A DNA stretch of 5,988 nucleotides, taken from the IMG/VR virus record IMGVR_UViG_2778260995_000009, positions 1 to 5,988 of that record; one strand, given 5' to 3'. Origin of the DNA: a virus (lineage: Duplodnaviria > Heunggongvirae > Uroviricota > Caudoviricetes). The position numbers and the translations under genes were made by a program. How positions within the stretch are numbered: the first letter of the stretch is position 1; each line of letters begins with the position of its first letter. Below the pieces are notes generated by a model. That model was not told where the DNA came from. It ran no database searches and was given only the letters and a program-made list of their open reading frames with translations. Of this stretch, positions 1-5,988 are shown in pieces.

Positions 1-582
1 GAATTATCGCTGGCTGAATTATCCTGGTGGGCGGTCTGCAATCAGGTGGCGGACGCGCTACCAGAGGCAGCATTACGCCGTTCGCTGGGGTTGCGTGCGG
101 AAAAAATCCGCTCAATGTACCGTGAAAGCGACATCGTACCGGGAGAGCAGACCGCCACCAGCATACTGAAGCAGCGCACAAAAAATATTGCGCCGTTGCC
201 TCACGCCCACCAGCAACAGAATCCACCACAGGAAAAGACGGTGGTCAGCATTGCCGTTGATCCGGAGTCACCGGCTCAGTATCTCCAGCGCCAGAAACCA
301 CAACGGGAAGAGATGCCTGTATACACGCGTTGGGTAAAAACGCAGAAATGCATGACGTGTGGCAATCAGGCAGATGATCCGCATCACATCATGGGTCATG
401 GACTGGGAGGGATGGGAACAAAGGCTGATGATTTGTTTGTTATTCCGCTGTGCCGTAAATGCCATAGCGAACTACACGCCGGGGTAAAAGATTTTGAAGA
501 AAAACACGGCAGCCAGCTGTTGTTGCTGATTCGTTTTTTAATGCACGCGAGAAATTCGGGTGTCCTGAAGTGGAAAGCATGA
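1..582 (+). CDS. NinG/DUF968-like phage protein with HNH-type zinc-finger motif (5' partial; frame is open from base 1)
   Basis: Frame 1 has no stop from position 1, so the gene begins upstream of the window. C-terminal motif CMTCG...DDPHHI...PLCRKCHSELH is a Cys/His HNH-like signature typical of DUF968 proteins found before rusA in lambdoid prophages. Stop TGA at 580-582 overlaps the rusA ATG region. Confidence 0.6.
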   Translation, partial: ELSLAELSWWAVCNQVADALPEAALRRSLGLRAEKIRSMYRESDIVPGEQTATSILKQRTKNIAPLPHAHQQQNPPQEKTVVSIAVDPESPAQYLQRQKPQREEMPVYTRWVKTQKCMTCGNQADDPHHIMGHGLGGMGTKADDLFVIPLCRKCHSELHAGVKDFEEKHGSQLLLLIRFLMHARNSGVLKWKA

Positions 583-948
583 ATGACTGAACGCATAGAA
601 TTTGTTTTGCCTTACCCGCCAACGGTGAACACTTACTGGCGACGTCGTGGCAGCACATATTTTGTATCAAAAGCCGGTGAGCGTTATCGCCGTGATGTGG
701 CGCTTATTGTTCGCCAGCAGCGACTGAAATTAAACCTGTCCGGACGGCTGGCGATAAAGATTATTGCAGAGCCACCGGATAAACGTCGTCGTGACCTGGA
801 CAATATCCTGAAAGCACCACTGGATGCGCTGACGCATGCCGGACTTCTCATAGACGACGAGCAGTTTGATGAAATCAATATTGTGCGCGGTCAGCTCGTT
901 CCTGGGGGGCGGCTGGGCGTGAAGATTTACAAAATTGAGAGTGAGTGA
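583..948 (+). CDS. rusA: Holliday junction resolvase RusA (crossover junction endodeoxyribonuclease)
   Basis: 121 aa, with LPYPPTVNTYWRRRG near the N-terminus, PDKRRRDLDN, DALTHAG, IDDEQ and GGRL matching my recollection of E. coli RusA (120 aa) including the acidic catalytic cluster. ATG at 583 immediately follows the upstream stop. Confidence 0.9.
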   Translation: MTERIEFVLPYPPTVNTYWRRRGSTYFVSKAGERYRRDVALIVRQQRLKLNLSGRLAIKIIAEPPDKRRRDLDNILKAPLDALTHAGLLIDDEQFDEINIVRGQLVPGGRLGVKIYKIESE

Positions 949-1502
949 TCGTAAATATGATATACCCGGAAATTACAGGCAAAAGCGGCGAGCATTTACG
1001 TCTAAAAACGCTGGAAGCCGTCTGGATCCAGGGGAAATTACGGATGTGGGGGCGTTGGTCGTACATAGGTGGTGGCAAACCAGGAAATATGTTCAATCAG
1101 TTGCTGGCATCCAAAACACTTACAAAAACTGCGATCAATGAAGCTCTGCGCAGAATAAAAAAATCAGGGATTGATAAAACTGAGCTGGAAGCGTTTTTGC
1201 GTGAGATGATCAACAGCAAGCAAAAGAGCGGGCTGGCTTATTGTACTGATGCCGAGGCGTTATGTATCGATCGGGTAATTAGTGAAGTGTTGGCAGAGCA
1301 TCCGGGATTGATTTGTATCCTCCGACAAAGATATGAAGGGCTGGGTATGAGCAAGCTGAAAATGGCAGAACAGTTAAAAAAGAATCACCCTGACTGGAGC
1401 CTGAAAACTTGTAGAAATCGCATTGATGTTTGGTTGGCGATGGCTGAAACCATGCTTTTCCTTCCAATGTGCGTGGCACTTCGGTGCTTTTCTGATAACT
1501 GA
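945..1502 (+). CDS. Late-gene antitermination protein Q (phage 82 / DLP12 QuuD-like family)
   Basis: Position directly after rusA. Motifs W..W near the N-terminus, CTDAEALCIDRV and a C-terminal helical region resemble QuuD-type Q proteins. Start is uncertain: GTG at 945 overlaps the rusA stop, alternative ATG at 957. Stop TGA at 1500-1502. Confidence 0.7.
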   Translation: MIVNMIYPEITGKSGEHLRLKTLEAVWIQGKLRMWGRWSYIGGGKPGNMFNQLLASKTLTKTAINEALRRIKKSGIDKTELEAFLREMINSKQKSGLAYCTDAEALCIDRVISEVLAEHPGLICILRQRYEGLGMSKLKMAEQLKKNHPDWSLKTCRNRIDVWLAMAETMLFLPMCVALRCFSDN

Positions 1503-1531
1503 TGATAGAAGTGCATCAGCTATCAATCTTG

Positions 1532-1560
1532 TTGACGTTCATCAAGGTCTGGACAATACT
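1532..1560 (+). promoter_or_regulatory. Sigma70-like promoter candidate: -35 TTGACG (1532-1537), 17-bp spacer, -10 AATACT (1555-1560)
   Basis: Hexamers and spacing read directly from sequence; lies between Q stop and the ATPase start. Could be the cassette's own promoter or the Q-dependent late promoter pR'. Confidence 0.3.
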
Positions 1561-1591
1561 TACGTTAAGTTCCAACATATGGAAGATAAGA

Positions 1592-2782
1592 ATGATATTT
1601 ACACGATTGAGATTTATCAATTTGTACGCTTTTGAGGATGCAGAGCTTAACCTGTCCTATCCAAGGAAACCTGTAAACATGCCTCTTGATGGGGAGTTTT
1701 TGGCTGGACGGCCTAAATTTTACTATAAAAAAGTCTGTATCATAACGGGGGGAAATGCTTCAGGTAAGACGTCACTAGGGCGAATTCTTTGTGGAATTCA
1801 GGTGTTTCTAAGAACCAAAGAGTTGCGGAGTAATCTGCGAGTGAATAATAAAAATAATGATGCTTCGTTTGAAGTGGACTTTGCTACGGAGGATCATTTT
1901 CATCATCGTTTGTATGTACGCTTTGCTACCAGTGAAGGCGGAGCGCACATAATCAAAGAAATTAAATATGGTTTTGTTCAAATAGCATTAAATGATTCTT
2001 GCCATAAAACCACAGAAAAACTGAATCAACTCTTTTCTGGAAGGGCCCCAGAAGATACAGAATATTTTTTTCAGGAACTAGCTACTGATAGCGAACCAGT
2101 TGTATTGGAGTTTTTCAAGCAACTTAAGTTTTTTGGTGGATGGTACTATTTGTTGTCTGAAACTAAAGAGAGTACCACTGCAATTTCAGGAATGAATAAA
2201 AATATTCTTGAAAGGATAATTCGCACTTTCGATTCAAGTATTATAGGAGTTACCGAGATGCTGGAGTCTGAAAGTGACGGGGATGAAAATAAATCATCTG
2301 CGGTTTATCTGATTAAATTTAAAAACTCTGATTCTCTTGTCGTTACCAGTAAAGGTGAAATAATTAACTCAGACCGTCTTTCTCGAGGAACATACGAGGC
2401 AGTGACGGTAGCGCATTTTATAAGCGCTATTATCTCTGATTGTGAAAGACTAGGTAAGCAATCTCTAATACCATCAATGACTTATTTTCTTGACGAGAAA
2501 TTGGCTTATACACATTCAGAGTTAGAGCGTATGATTGTGGCGCTGATTATATCTAATTTGAAAGAAAATACTCAGTTTTTCTATACAACGCATAACATGG
2601 ATATTTTTGAGTTGGATCTGCCTGTTCACTCGTTCATTTTTATTAAAAAAACGAAAGACTATTCGGAGTTTGTTGAAGCAAATTCAGTTGTTAAAAAAAA
2701 TGACCGTAGCATGCGAAACGCTGTTGAGAGAGATGTCTTTGGTGTCTTACCTGACACATCATTAGTATCGGAGCTACTCTGA
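1592..2782 (+). CDS. ABC/OLD-family P-loop ATPase (AAA_15/AAA_21-like), component A of a candidate two-gene defence cassette
   Basis: Walker A GGNASGKTS (codons at 1748-1771), Walker B YFLDE (2483-2497) and H-loop-like YTTHN (about 2581-2595) in the order expected for ABC-type ATPases. N-terminus MIFTRLRFINLYAF fits the usual start of this family. GGAAG Shine-Dalgarno at 1581-1585. The ORF track's 1502 start adds 30 implausible hydrophobic residues overlapping the promoter-like element. Gene is markedly AT-rich. Confidence 0.8.
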   Translation: MIFTRLRFINLYAFEDAELNLSYPRKPVNMPLDGEFLAGRPKFYYKKVCIITGGNASGKTSLGRILCGIQVFLRTKELRSNLRVNNKNNDASFEVDFATEDHFHHRLYVRFATSEGGAHIIKEIKYGFVQIALNDSCHKTTEKLNQLFSGRAPEDTEYFFQELATDSEPVVLEFFKQLKFFGGWYYLLSETKESTTAISGMNKNILERIIRTFDSSIIGVTEMLESESDGDENKSSAVYLIKFKNSDSLVVTSKGEIINSDRLSRGTYEAVTVAHFISAIISDCERLGKQSLIPSMTYFLDEKLAYTHSELERMIVALIISNLKENTQFFYTTHNMDIFELDLPVHSFIFIKKTKDYSEFVEANSVVKKNDRSMRNAVERDVFGVLPDTSLVSELL

Positions 2783-3315
2783 TGGCGGGGTTGTCTAAAA
2801 TAAGAATAATTTTTGTCGAAGGTGAAACAGAAAACTCTCTTTTTCTGAAGATGAAACAACAGAGAGTTATTGATGCCAAATCAATTGTAAAAAGAAACTT
2901 TTGGCAAGAGAGCATAAGAAATTATGCGATTACTATTCCGAAGGGAAGTGATATACTAATTGTCTTTGATAGTGATGAAGTGGAGCAATCTGCAAGATTC
3001 ATTGAAAATGTAAAGTTCCTTAAAAACAGAGGGCATAAAGTTTATCTTTTGCAGCAGAAAAGAAATTTTGAGGAGGAGTTGGCCTGGTGTTGCGGAATTC
3101 CTGTAAAAAAACTAATTGCTGGGTTCTGTGCAAAAAAAACATCGGGTATAAATGATTTCAAGAGAGATTTTATTGCTTGTAACAATCAACTTTCAAAGTT
3201 ACTGAAAATGGGCATGCAGGAAACTAAGTGGTTTACAAGAGATTTACATGCTGTATTGGAGCCTGTTGCAAGTTTTAAGTCATCTTTTTCTAAACATTTC
3301 AGGTTAACAAGATGA
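2782..3315 (+). CDS. Small TOPRIM-like protein (RloB/DUF4276/AriB-like nuclease candidate), component B of the defence cassette
   Basis: 177 aa. N-terminal IIFVEGETE (conserved Glu codons at 2818-2820 and 2824-2826) followed by ILIVFDSDE (DxD) matches the TOPRIM Glu plus DxD metal-binding arrangement. Start ATG overlaps the ATPase stop (TGATGG at 2780-2785); GGAG Shine-Dalgarno at 2770-2773. AT-rich like the ATPase. Confidence 0.7.
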   Translation: MAGLSKIRIIFVEGETENSLFLKMKQQRVIDAKSIVKRNFWQESIRNYAITIPKGSDILIVFDSDEVEQSARFIENVKFLKNRGHKVYLLQQKRNFEEELAWCCGIPVKKLIAGFCAKKTSGINDFKRDFIACNNQLSKLLKMGMQETKWFTRDLHAVLEPVASFKSSFSKHFRLTR

Positions 3316-3597
3316 TTTATTTTCTTTTTTGTTCAGCTGATTGTTTTTGTTTGTAAAATGTCTTGATTTTTTGCCAATAAACTGTTTCAATCCAGCTACG
3401 CTTCGCAAAGCTGTACCGCGAGGCGAATAGCAGACATGGACACCTGAAAGAATCCGCTTTATGCGAGTTTTTTTATGCCTGAAAAACGGCACAGAACATT
3501 AAACGCGCTGGTAGTTGTGAATACTGGTCTTTCAGCTTGCTGGCTTTTTCGACAAGAGGTATTGGTATATCACGTTAACCAGAAAAGGGGAAAAGGC

Positions 3598-3795
3598 ATG
3601 CTAAAACAGCAGGATATGACCGAAACCGCCAGAGTGGTGTTTAATGAATTAAGCGTCACCGAACCGGCGACCGTCGGGGAAATTGCGCAGAATACTTACC
3701 TTTCACGCGAACGCTGCCAGTTAATACTGACTCAGCTTGTTATGGCGGGTCTGGCAGATTATCAGTTCGGTTGTTACAGACGCCTTCCTCAGTGA
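3598..3795 (+). CDS. Small hypothetical protein (65 aa) with predicted helix-turn-helix / winged-helix character
   Basis: ATG at 3598 preceded by purine-rich Shine-Dalgarno AAAAGGGGAAAAGG. Segment TVGEIAQNTYLSRERCQLILTQLVMAGLA looks like an HTH recognition unit. The track's longer ORF from 3475 has no RBS and an implausible N-terminus. Fold assignment is inference only. Confidence 0.45.
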   Translation: MLKQQDMTETARVVFNELSVTEPATVGEIAQNTYLSRERCQLILTQLVMAGLADYQFGCYRRLPQ

Positions 3796-3850
3796 AGGTT
3801 TTTTAATTTGTGGTAATGGGCGGCTGGTGGGTGTTAGCGGCACCTGCCAG

Positions 3851-3899
3851 CCATCTGCTCATGCGTTGGGGTCACAAGCAAACCTCAGGCCCATCTGCT
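3851..3899 (+). repeat. Two direct repeats CCATCTGCT (3851-3859 and 3891-3899), 40-bp period, each followed by (A)TGCG
   Basis: Read directly from sequence; located in the intergenic region between the small HTH gene and the methyltransferase start, so possibly operator-like sites. Confidence 0.3.
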
Positions 3900-3945
3900 T
3901 TGCGCAAAAGCGGTATGAGCCTATCAGAGAAGTGCTTATTGATCT

Positions 3946-4995
3946 ATGGCCAATACTGTAAAAATATCCAGTTGTGAGTTAATCAACGCTGATTGCCTGG
4001 AATTTATCCAGACCTTACCGGAAAATTCTGTCGATCTGATAGTCACAGACCCGCCATACTTTAAAGTGAAGCCCGAGGGCTGGGATAACCAGTGGGAGGG
4101 CGACGATGATTACCTGAAATGGCTGGACCAGTGTCTGGCGCAGTTCTGGCGGGTACTGAAGCCTACCGGAAGTCTTTACCTGTTCTGTGGTCATCGCCTG
4201 GCATCTGACACCGAAATCATGATGCGTGAGCGCTTTAATGTGCTGAACCACATTATCTGGGCGAAGCCGTCCGGACGCTGGAACGGGTGCAATAAGGAAA
4301 GTCTGCGGGCGTATTTTCCGGCAACAGAGCGCATTCTGTTTGCAGAACATTATCAGGGACCGTATCGCCCGAAAGATGATGGCTATGTGGCACAGGGGCG
4401 CGAGCTAAAACAGCACGTCATGGCCCCGCTGATTTCTTACTTTCGTGATGCGCGTAAATCACTGGGAATAACGTCAAAACAGATAGCGGAAGCCACCGGA
4501 AAGAAAAACATGGCTTCGCACTGGTTTGGTACCAGTCAGTGGCAGTTACCGAACGAGGGTGATTACAACAAATTGCAGGCGTTGTTTGCGCGTGTTGCGG
4601 CAGAAAAACATCAGCGCGGGGAACTGGAAAAGCCACACCACCAGCTGGTCAGCACATACAGTGAGCTGAACCGGCAGTATACGGAACTGCTGAGTGAATA
4701 TAAAAATTTGCGGCGGTATTTCGGTGTGACGGCGCAGGTTCCGTACACCGATGTCTGGACGCATAAACCGGTGCAGTACTATCCAGGGAAACATCCGTGC
4801 GAAAAACCGGCAGAAATGCTGCAGCAGATAATCAACGCGAGCAGTCGTCCGGGAGACCTGGTTGCAGATTTTTTTATGGGTTCAGGTTCAACGGTAAAAG
4901 CGGCGATGGCACTGGGGCGTTGTGCGATTGGTGTTGAGCTGGAGACAGGACGTTTTGAACAGACAGTCAGGGAAGTTCAGGATTTAATCGTTTGA
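3946..4995 (+). CDS. DNA N6-adenine methyltransferase (beta-class, motif IV before motif I), phage orphan-type
   Basis: DPPY catalytic motif near the N-terminus (VTDPPYF) and FxGxG SAM-binding motif near the C-terminus (DFFMGSGST). This order and spacing is typical of phage-encoded N6A methyltransferases. An in-frame TGA immediately upstream fixes the start at 3946. Confidence 0.85.
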   Translation: MANTVKISSCELINADCLEFIQTLPENSVDLIVTDPPYFKVKPEGWDNQWEGDDDYLKWLDQCLAQFWRVLKPTGSLYLFCGHRLASDTEIMMRERFNVLNHIIWAKPSGRWNGCNKESLRAYFPATERILFAEHYQGPYRPKDDGYVAQGRELKQHVMAPLISYFRDARKSLGITSKQIAEATGKKNMASHWFGTSQWQLPNEGDYNKLQALFARVAAEKHQRGELEKPHHQLVSTYSELNRQYTELLSEYKNLRRYFGVTAQVPYTDVWTHKPVQYYPGKHPCEKPAEMLQQIINASSRPGDLVADFFMGSGSTVKAAMALGRCAIGVELETGRFEQTVREVQDLIV

Positions 4996-5044
4996 AACGG
5001 ATGAGATTGCAGAATTAATTACGCACCATTATTATTCTGCTCCC

Positions 5045-5120
5045 GGCCCTTTAGCTCAGTGGTGAGAGCGAGCGACTCATAATCGCCAGGTCGCTGGTTC
5101 AAATCCAGCAAGGGCCACCA
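5045..5120 (+). tRNA. ileZ: tRNA-Ile2 (anticodon CAU, lysidine type; ileZ-like), 76 nt with encoded CCA
   Basis: Hand-folded cloverleaf: acceptor GGCCCTT/AAGGGCC, D arm GCTC/GAGC, anticodon loop CTCATAA (CAT at 5078-5080), T arm GCTGG-TTCAAAT-CCAGC. Resembles E. coli ileX/ileY. CAU could also be Met; Ile2 is inferred from similarity. Confidence 0.85.
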
Positions 5121-5127
5121 TCACATA

Positions 5128-5204
5128 CCGCCATTAGCTCATCAGGATAGAGCGCCAGCCTTCGAAGCTGGTTGCGCGGGGTTCGAGTCCTCGATGGCGG
5201 TCCA
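5128..5204 (+). tRNA. argN: tRNA-Arg (anticodon UCG), 77 nt with encoded CCA
   Basis: Hand-folded: acceptor CCGCCAT/ATGGCGG, anticodon stem CCAGC/GCTGG with loop CTTCGAA (TCG at 5162-5164), T arm CGGGG-TTCGAGT-CCTCG. The C1-G72 start is unusual, so the 5' end could be off by 1-2 nt. Gene symbol assigned by position only. Confidence 0.75.
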
Positions 5205-5217
5205 TTATCTGTACCCT

Positions 5218-5294
5218 GCGTTGTTAGCTCAGCCGGACAGAGCAATTGCCTTCTAAGCAATCGGTCACTGGTTCGAATCCAGTACAACGCGCCA
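5218..5294 (+). tRNA. argO: tRNA-Arg (anticodon UCU), 77 nt with encoded CCA
   Basis: Hand-folded: acceptor GCGTTGT/ACAACGC, anticodon stem ATTGC/GCAAT with loop CTTCTAA (TCT at 5252-5254), T arm ACTGG-TTCGAAT-CCAGT. Gene symbol assigned by position only. Confidence 0.8.
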
Positions 5295-5444
5295 CGCTTA
5301 TTTTTCCAGGCTCGCTTTGGCGGGTCTTTTTCATATCCGCGTCACGTCAGGCGCACATCAAACAAACACAGAATCTTTCAGGGGCGGGGTAGTCAGTGTG
5401 ACGTTCTCTGGAGACCTGTCACTTCCGGGGATAGGTGTTTTTAC

Positions 5445-5468
5445 GGGCTGCTGGTGGCCCTTTTTTAT
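5445..5468 (+). terminator. Possible intrinsic terminator: GGGC...GCCC short stem followed by TTTTTTATTT
   Basis: GGGCTGCTGGTGGCCC (5445-5460) then a T-run at 5461-5470. The stem is only about 4 bp, so this is weak. Confidence 0.25.
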
Positions 5469-5485
5469 TTACAGGAGAAAGAAGT

Positions 5486-5878
5486 ATGTCTGAACCCTTA
5501 TCCGGTTCCGGTACGGCTGCGGCGCTCGGCGGGGCGACGGTATTCGGGCTGTTTACCGGAACGGATTTCGGGATTGTGTTTGGTGCATTCGCCGGGGCGT
5601 TGTTCGTGGCCACGATGCCGCAGGCGTTTTCAGGCTGGCGAGTGGCAGCACATTTTCTGGTGTCATTTATTGTTGGCGTGCTGGGTGCACGTGCGTTGTC
5701 AGCCTGGGTTGCATCAAAAACAGGTTATGACGGTACATCGGCGGATGCACTGTGTGCGGTGCTGGTGTCAGTGATGTCGGTAAAGATTCTGGCATTCATC
5801 CACCAGCAGGATATTGCAGCGCTGATATCCGGTTTGTTCTCCCGCCTGCGGAGTGGAGGTGGTGGCAATGCCAGATAA
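5486..5878 (+). CDS. Hypothetical Gly/Ala-rich membrane protein, possible holin-like lysis protein
   Basis: ATG at 5486 with strong Shine-Dalgarno AGGAGA (5473-5478). Several hydrophobic Gly/Ala-rich stretches (GGATVFGLFTG, IVFGAFAGALFVA, FLVSFIVGVLGA). Sits where lambdoid phages place lysis genes. No specific family recognised. Confidence 0.45.
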   Translation: MSEPLSGSGTAAALGGATVFGLFTGTDFGIVFGAFAGALFVATMPQAFSGWRVAAHFLVSFIVGVLGARALSAWVASKTGYDGTSADALCAVLVSVMSVKILAFIHQQDIAALISGLFSRLRSGGGGNAR

Positions 5879-5988
5879 CCTTTCTGAATTACTGAACGTG
5901 GCGTTATGCACGGTTATCGTGCTGACGCTCTTTTTTTATCGTCGCCGTGATTCCAGACATAAACCGCTGGTGTCATGGCTGGCCTGGC
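5866..5988 (+). CDS. Small hypothetical membrane protein (3' partial, runs off window), start overlapping upstream stop
   Basis: ATG at 5866 overlaps the preceding gene's 3' end (stop TAA 5876-5878). Hydrophobic stretch VALCTVIVLTLFFY followed by RRRDSRHK fits a single-pass membrane topology. Not in the ORF track because it is truncated. Confidence 0.3.

Follow-up and report, generated by a model that had tools for sequence, protein, structure and literature searches.

Morons are autonomous promoter-gene units of temperate phages, with bor and lom of lambda and gp15 of HK97 as examples. In lambda, the late promoter pR' is accompanied by a -10-like element ~6 nt past its -10 hexamer, and in Stx phages such as 933W, tRNA and toxin genes are located downstream of pR'. 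The late region of lambdoid phages follows the order Q gene, pR', -10-like pause element, terminator and late genes (10.1101/651190; PMC6606751). The Tai/Ati defence unit of phi80 is located in a lambdoid prophage, next to the Q-controlled late operon, and has a constitutive promoter of its own; its interplay with the late transcript has been shown experimentally (PMC11364771).

The DNA analysed here (the window) is a 5,988-nt stretch of a Caudoviricetes virus record (IMGVR_UViG_2778260995_000009, positions 1 to 5,988) in which a putative anti-phage gene pair lies between a probable Q gene and the presumed late operon. A sequence-only reading of this DNA had noted a promoter-like motif, TTGACG-17-AATACT, 30 nt past the Q stop codon, where we find it as well (1532-1560; TGA at 1500-1502), and had offered two explanations for it: either the motif is the gene pair's own promoter, or pR' had been displaced by, or drives, the inserted genes. 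Comparison with homologous loci makes it likely that a mobile, two-gene, low-G+C cassette recombined between the Q stop codon and the late promoter and that 1532-1560 is its sigma-70 promoter, with the late unit retained downstream (Table 1).

The cassette resembles Tai/Ati in that defence-type genes with a promoter of their own (predicted, in the case of the window) are located near a Q-controlled late operon, whereas Tai/Ati occupies a different locus, upstream of the packaging genes, and encodes different proteins. The nearest kin of the cassette proteins are AbiL (AbiLi plus AbiLii) and the split OLD-like systems (AriA/AriB of PARIS and GajA of Gabija), although the partner protein encoded in the window has no Pfam match. 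As with moron promoters, a predicted sigma-70 promoter lies directly 5' of cargo with atypical base composition, within a prophage, and recurs in unrelated contexts, and the cassette, like morons, is presumably expressed in the lysogen. Unlike morons, the cassette has no terminator of its own and would use the phage tR', such that it is not a complete textbook moron, and its leader carries a deeply conserved inverted repeat. The predicted cassette promoter is a further case of the known cargo (moron-type) promoter.

Organization of the window and its cassette

The G+C content is 0.32-0.41 over positions 1500-3400, compared with 0.44-0.56 in the flanks. Within this region, the ATPase was identified as AbiLi by PADLOC (3.4e-25), with Pfam matches to AAA_15 and AAA_21 that fall below their cut-offs. 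The Toprim-like partner matched no Pfam family, its sole NCBIfam hit scored 15 bits against a cut-off of 115, and its match to AbiLii was marginal. We regard the two genes as a putative AbiL-like ATPase plus Toprim-like anti-phage pair. The ATPase begins at 1592 (MIFTRL...) and not at the upstream in-frame ATG at 1502, in agreement with the RefSeq annotation, and in four relatives the frame upstream of the start is closed within 1-16 codons. NCBIfam yielded no significant family for Q, the ATPase or the small TrmB-like ORF, and an Rfam search of the whole window (E <= 1) returned only the three tRNAs, with no family for the cassette leader or the late-unit leader.

To the right of the cassette, the TrmB-like ORF, the methyltransferase gene, the three tRNAs and the holin genes presumably constitute the late operon. 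Terminator-like hairpins are located at 5308-5327, right after the tRNA cluster, and at 5445-5460, just upstream of the holin gene, and late transcription would need to read through both.

Table 1. Positions of the genes and predicted control elements of the window
Feature	Position	Strand	Remarks
DUF968 gene	46-582		Window left end
rusA	583-948		
DUF1133 gene, probable Q-like antiterminator	957-1502	+	Distant Q21/Q933W relative; stop TGA 1500-1502
-35 hexamer TTGACG	1532-1537	+	Predicted cassette promoter
Spacer, 17 nt	1538-1554	+	
-10 hexamer AATACT	1555-1560	+	GATACT or GATAAT in most relatives
Predicted transcription start	1567-1568	+	7-8 nt past -10, by position rule
Inverted repeat TTCCA-N5-TGGAA	1570-1584	+	In 25-nt leader; right arm overlaps Shine-Dalgarno GGAAG 1581-1585
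ABC/AAA_15-type ATPase gene, AbiLi-like	1592-2782	+	PADLOC; RefSeq start
Toprim-like partner gene, 177 aa	2782-3315	+	Start overlaps ATPase stop (TGATG)
Non-coding DNA, 282 nt	between Toprim-like partner gene and TrmB-like ORF		
AAAATGTCTTGA, remnant of the 3'-terminal codons (K M S stop) of another Q gene, of L005 type	3355-3366	+	Right-hand cassette junction
Probable pR'	3363-3391	+	TTGATT 3363-3368, 17 nt, TG 3383-3384, TTCAAT 3386-3391
Spacer block ATAAACTG	within 3363-3391		Conserved; candidate Q-binding element
-10-like TACGCT (TAnGCT)	3397-3402	+	5 nt past -10; candidate sigma-dependent pause element
Leader hairpin CGCUUCGC...GCGAGGCG, 8 bp	3399-3425	+	Predicted fold, conserved
Intrinsic terminator, probable tR'	3451-3474	+	Hairpin plus T7
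Small TrmB-like ORF	3598-3795	+	First gene past terminator
DNA methyltransferase gene	3946-4995		
Three tRNAs	5045-5294		
Holin genes	from 5486		

Identity of the DUF1133 gene

The DUF1133 gene, located 3' of rusA and 5' of the lysis genes, is probably Q, as judged from protein family matches and a structural model. Its product matched DUF1133 in Pfam (7.8e-99) and, over residues 69-166, also scored 31.8 bits with PF06530, the Q21/Q933W family, whose cut-off is 26. When a low-confidence AlphaFold model of the protein (pLDDT 64) was compared with the PDB using Foldseek, the top nine matches were all Q21 (probability 1.0, E 5e-3 to 4e-2, TM 0.41-0.56, with only the C-terminal half of the model being confident), and the next match had E > 1. 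A sequence search of the PDB with the same protein found no Q. Some database sources label DUF1133 proteins as antiterminator or late gene regulator. In PMC8136144, the paper recovered by a full-text search for DUF1133, they are listed as 'Q antiterminator (HHPred)', an assignment made by HHpred only.

The last ~100 nt of the Q gene in the window (~35 codons; 1400-1502) have been replaced, on the left of the cassette, by a divergent, intact allele (...VWLAMAETMLFLPMCVA...SDN) that occurs only next to the cassette, both among the E. coli genomes and in the metagenomic contigs L018 and L019. In E. coli, this divergent 3' end never occurs apart from the cassette, so that Q may, formally, have changed its specificity. 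The C-terminal tail is hypervariable across the DUF1133 family generally, and the TCRNRIDxWL motif of the C-terminal region is kept in the window's allele.

A hairpin inside the end of Q (1475-1488; GGCAC-UUCG-GUGCU followed by UUUUCU) was considered as an insulating terminator and is probably a chance structure, with a predicted energy of -6.1 kcal/mol (z = -1.1) and no counterpart kept in L018.

A probable late control unit downstream of the cassette

Homology to cassette-free genomes starts at 3355, and the first bases past this junction, AAAATGTCTTGA, coincide with the 3'-terminal codons of a different Q allele. The same bases close the Q ORF of L005 (...QKMS*; L005 1501-1512), where the Q stop codon TGA is located inside the -35 hexamer TTGATT; in L006, the Q stop codon is located inside the promoter spacer of the late unit. 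The window therefore contains the footprint of a second Q 3' end. The segment from 3355 to 3450 matches 1,761 E. coli genomes, where it mostly overlaps the end of a DUF1133 gene, and most late units abut Q directly (evenly spaced sample, 40 rows of the 1,761-genome match list).

Alignments of nine versions of the late unit indicated that the TTG of the -35 hexamer and an ATAAAC block in the spacer are conserved, and that the T, A, G and final T of TAnGCT are invariant, including in the most divergent units (TAAGAT, TATGCT). The terminator is also conserved across the E. coli units, with a predicted energy of -9.4 kcal/mol in the window versus -18.0 kcal/mol in the cassette-free L002. The window's copy carries two substitutions (AATCCGC...GCGAGTT), and the hairpin is intact in the cassette-bearing L018 and L022. 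Transcripts started at the cassette promoter or at the putative late promoter may, in this lineage, leak past the terminator into the genes beyond it (TrmB-like ORF, methyltransferase and tRNAs). Phages of the phage collection, phiP27 and the Stx2 phages among them, have no match to the window's Q region and are homologous to the window only from 3451-3469 onward, and the hairpin that phiP27 carries at this point is a different one. PF03589-type Q genes have yet another unit behind them. Because phages with other Q genes match only from the terminator on, the segment between Q and the terminator is specific to the Q type, as would be expected if the promoter carries its own Q-binding element.

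These data point to 3363-3474 as the probable late control unit (pR'/tR') of the DUF1133 Q. Like the corresponding units of lambda, 21, 82 and 933W, it abuts Q, contains a -10-like element and a short leader, and has an intrinsic terminator upstream of the late genes; the 5 nt between its -10 and the -10-like element resemble the spacing at lambda pR'. It differs from the lambdoid units in that its Q-binding element is a candidate only and in that its proposed -10 hexamer, TTCAAT, has no A at position 2, where this base is nearly universal, a departure that explains why our promoter scan did not list 3363-3391. No direct repeat of the TGAGCA type found in phage 21 was noticed by eye within 3363-3391. 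The sequence-only reading had named 3400-3600 as a region in which a pR'/tR' unit would speak against its proposal; a unit is present at 3363-3474, and in cassette-free relatives it abuts the DUF1133 stop codon. With a predicted promoter, a -10-like element and a terminator in place downstream, the suggestion that pR' had been displaced by, or drives, the cassette finds no support. Delineation of the unit also provides a sequence-level definition of a probable pR'/tR', including TAnGCT, for the widespread and uncharacterised DUF1133 Q family.

An explanation that accepts the cassette promoter but assigns 3363-3474 a different role, for example as a small-RNA gene or an attenuator of the TrmB-like ORF, would place pR' elsewhere, such as within 5295-5485. 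The non-canonical -10 hexamer and the terminator-like hairpins (5308-5327 and 5445-5460) located just before the holin gene are compatible with this explanation, and Q action at 3363-3474 is predicted from sequence only. Nevertheless, we consider it rather unlikely, as the promoter scan gave no + strand site in 5295-5485 and this interval is variable, with extra genes (TerB and DUF3927) in B7A, whereas the sequence at 3363-3474 has what a pR'/tR' unit needs: a physical link to the Q stop codon, variation with the type of Q, and a terminator at its end. The gene order of Stx phages, in which tRNA and toxin genes follow pR', argues against it as well.

Conservation of the promoter-like motif across cassette contexts

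In a consensus scan, the motif at 1532-1560 matched 9 of 12 positions, and seven promoter-like sites of such quality occur in the window, compared with 8.6 +/- 3.2 in shuffled sequences. By itself, therefore, the predicted promoter is a chance-level match, and the case for its reality rests on conservation across cassette homologues.

The cassette is present in 7 of 5,426 complete E. coli genomes. The 3-kb query had partial matches in approximately 2,170 E. coli genomes, for the most part to the flanks on the Q side and the TrmB side, with the cassette absent. Positions 1400-1600 of the window were found only in the seven cassette-bearing genomes, and because the Q end and the motif are identical in all seven, E. 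coli alone provides no comparative signal. Cassette homologues were collected from a large protein database and their genomic contexts were fetched, giving 11 contexts in which ATPase identity ranges from 99 to 46%; one homologue, P0011, was located by motif scan. Column invariance, as given below, refers to these 11 sequences, and pairwise identity figures refer to a 7-sequence alignment. A motif scan of one genome per species yielded a single true cassette, in Erwinia sp. S63, and three look-alikes without an ATPase downstream. The phage and plasmid collections contained only distant ATPase relatives (~32-34% identical) that were unusable for promoter comparison.

The contexts are diverse. 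The cassette follows DUF1133 Q genes in the window, in L018/L019 and in L016, and it follows PF03589-type Q genes in L010/L011 and L012 (Citrobacter koseri and a metagenomic contig). Elsewhere, it adjoins ttcA at a Q-free site that retains an integrase remnant (L009), a prophage integrase bordering the pot operon (L017), or, on the opposite strand, a large MuF-type protein gene (L014) or baseplate genes (L025). It is also located between the portal gene and gpA in a P2-like prophage (L027), and between a dehydrogenase gene and a chemoreceptor gene on the chromosome of Erwinia sp. S63 (L033), in surroundings that contain no phage genes among ORFs of at least 100 aa.

Common to all 11 contexts, upstream of the ATPase start, are TTGAC[GC]-17-[AG]ATA[CA]T and TTCCA-N5-TGGAA. 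In the -35 hexamer, TTGA is invariant and C is nearly so; in the ATACT of the -10 hexamer, the A, T, A and final T are invariant and C is nearly so. The spacer, which is 17 nt in 10 of the 11 contexts (16 nt in L027), varies freely in sequence, and A is nearly invariant at both predicted start columns. In the 7-sequence alignment, the -35 reaches a mean pairwise identity of 0.95 and the -10 one of 0.87, compared with 0.46 for the spacer, 0.37 for the discriminator and 0.34 for the upstream sequence. Conserved hexamers held at a fixed distance by a drifting spacer are the signature expected of a working sigma-70 promoter. In L009, L017, L025 and L033, the neighbouring gene upstream is encoded on the other strand, indicating that the cassette needs its own promoter there. 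Moreover, the motif is conserved with the cassette after an unrelated Q family or in the absence of any Q, so that the predicted promoter belongs to, and travels with, the cassette, in line with the first of the two explanations originally offered for the motif.

Were the motif instead a fortuitous match without function, expression of the cassette would depend entirely on read-through of the Q-containing operon upstream. Such an explanation would fit a 9/12 match that is no commoner than in shuffles, and it would fit the lack of a strong terminator between Q and the ATPase gene, as the hairpin at 1475-1488 is weak and not kept in L018. It is very improbable, however, given that the hexamers and their spacing persist amid varying bases in relatives whose ATPase identity is as low as 46%, and that in several contexts a divergently oriented upstream neighbour rules out read-through.

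It is scarcely credible that 1532-1560 is a Q-dependent pR' and the cassette the first gene pair of a Q-antiterminated late transcript. In favour of this reading, the motif occupies the usual place of pR' after the Q stop codon (10.1101/651190), the divergent Q 3' end and the intergenic region always occur together in E. coli, and a weak -10-like TAAGTT (1566-1571) overlaps the predicted start and recurs, in TAnnnT form, in about half of the 11 relatives. Against it, the promoter-like motif also stands before the cassette at loci with a non-homologous Q family and at loci without Q, no terminator separates the motif from the coding sequence, the unit that abuts the DUF1133 Q in most of the 1,761 genomes is present at 3363-3474, and the window's Q allele keeps TCRNRIDxWL. 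The motif shares with lambdoid pR' only its position after Q and its resemblance to a promoter; unlike a pR'/tR' unit, it has no terminator, is not tied to one Q family (DUF1133 Q, PF03589 Q or no Q) and is located directly 5' of a coding sequence.

A minus-strand promoter-like site at 1620-1592 (TTGATA-17-TATCAT, 10/12), directed toward Q, is probably a chance match. We rejected it because it sits in the conserved codons for MIFTRLRFINL (the first 10 of the ATPase) and its -35 varies with codon changes.

At two related loci of Armatimonadota MAGs (L031 1495-1547 and L032 4323-4375), TTGACT-17-TATACT is followed by TTCCAAGAAATGGAA and a conserved terminator-like tail. These loci have no ATPase downstream and may represent an unrelated small-RNA gene.

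Predicted transcription of the cassette and its leader

In sigma-70 promoters, the position of the transcription start follows from the distance to the -10 hexamer. In the window, the start codon of the ATPase is located 32 nt past AATACT, and the cassette promoter would direct transcription from ~1567 through a 25-nt leader containing TTCCA-N5-TGGAA and the ribosome-binding site, and then through both overlapping genes. The weak leader hairpin would pair the Shine-Dalgarno sequence with TTCCA, and the ATPase and Toprim-like genes would be translationally coupled through their TGATG overlap. The observation that no tR'-like hairpin precedes the ATPase start proved correct, as our hairpin scan detected no terminator-like hairpin on the + strand between 1560 and 1592. 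The same scan detected no terminator-like site on the + strand over the whole of 1560-3451, including the stretch between 3315 and the phage terminator at 3451. Because the cassette has no terminator of its own, its transcript is expected to run on to the phage terminator (3451-3474) and stop there.

At the late unit, Q would load on polymerase at 3363-3402. Because the cassette is upstream of this unit, the Q-modified polymerase would never cross it, and the Q-antiterminated transcript from 3363-3474 would exclude it. For the same reason, it is unlikely that the cassette is the first Q-antiterminated late gene and is subject to an unusual coupling to induction, as had been suggested when the motif was first noted. 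Any coupling to induction would instead take the form of read-through from the early operon past Q into the cassette, which may occur because the only hairpin between them (1475-1488) is weak and not conserved. We infer from the DNA sequence that the promoter is active, where it starts transcription, that the cassette is expressed in the lysogen, that Q acts at 3363-3474 and that read-through from the Q operon follows induction. Wired in this manner, the cassette would be a self-contained cargo unit with its own promoter, not a Q-controlled late gene, that leaves the Q gene and the late control unit intact, and the proposed unusual coupling of a defence system to Q antitermination would thereby fall away.

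The leader repeat is the other deeply conserved element of the cassette's 5' region. TTCCAA and TGGAA are invariant in the 11 contexts, down to 46% ATPase identity, and the loop between them is variable and A-rich. As RNA, TTCCA-N5-TGGAA would form a weak 5-bp hairpin (-3.6 kcal/mol, z = -0.63), and no covariation between the two arms was found among the 11 contexts. The invariance of the repeat could reflect a DNA operator, or it could reflect an anti-Shine-Dalgarno or 5'-end hairpin in which the right arm is fixed by the ribosome-binding site. In either case, the repeat represents a target for studying the regulation of AbiL-like systems.

The gap between Q and the late unit as an insertion point

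In L010 and L012, where the cassette follows a PF03589-type Q gene, the sequence TTGACT...TATGCT is located 3' of the cassette and is followed by a terminator ~50 nt later. In Fels-1 (Salmonella) and in the Klebsiella phage ST16-OXA48phi5.3, TTGACT...TATGCT and a terminator occur ~40 bp after a PF03589-type Q gene. The layouts of the window and of L010/L012 indicate that the same cassette landed between Q and the late unit in two non-homologous modules, such that the junction between the Q stop codon and the late promoter has received it in two Q lineages that are unrelated to each other. With most units of the 40-row sample abutting Q directly, the gap is an occasional insertion point and not a crowded hotspot.

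A broader proposal, which we put forward tentatively and regard as doubtful in its full form, is that the gap between the Q stop codon and the late promoter serves as a recurrent dock for cargo, whatever the Q family. A cassette located there would be expressed in the lysogen from its own promoter and boosted by read-through from the early operon while lying outside the Q-modified transcript, and TTCCA-N5-TGGAA would not be a passive leader but would gate the system, either as an operator or by switching translation.

In E. coli HNSQ2209 (L008 1646-2573), the space between the DUF1133 Q gene and the late-promoter-like unit is filled by a gene encoding an ORF6N-domain protein. In phage Rac-SA53 (L023 3537-3992), the gene annotated as q belongs to the DUF1133 family, and the unit that follows it is diverged (CTTGATT-17-TATCTT, 5 nt, TAAGAT). 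Genes for a pertussis-like toxin, eplBA, lie after this unit and before the holins, so that this cargo is downstream of the unit, as are the stx genes. In phiP27 (L001; 2590-2684 and 3913-4010), a good promoter-like sequence, TTGATT-16-TAAAAT, and a long hairpin are located right after a Q-like gene and before a GIY-YIG gene, and a terminator occurs only after the GIY-YIG gene. In that phage, the late promoter and its terminator may well flank the cargo, as the sequence-only reading had envisaged for the window.
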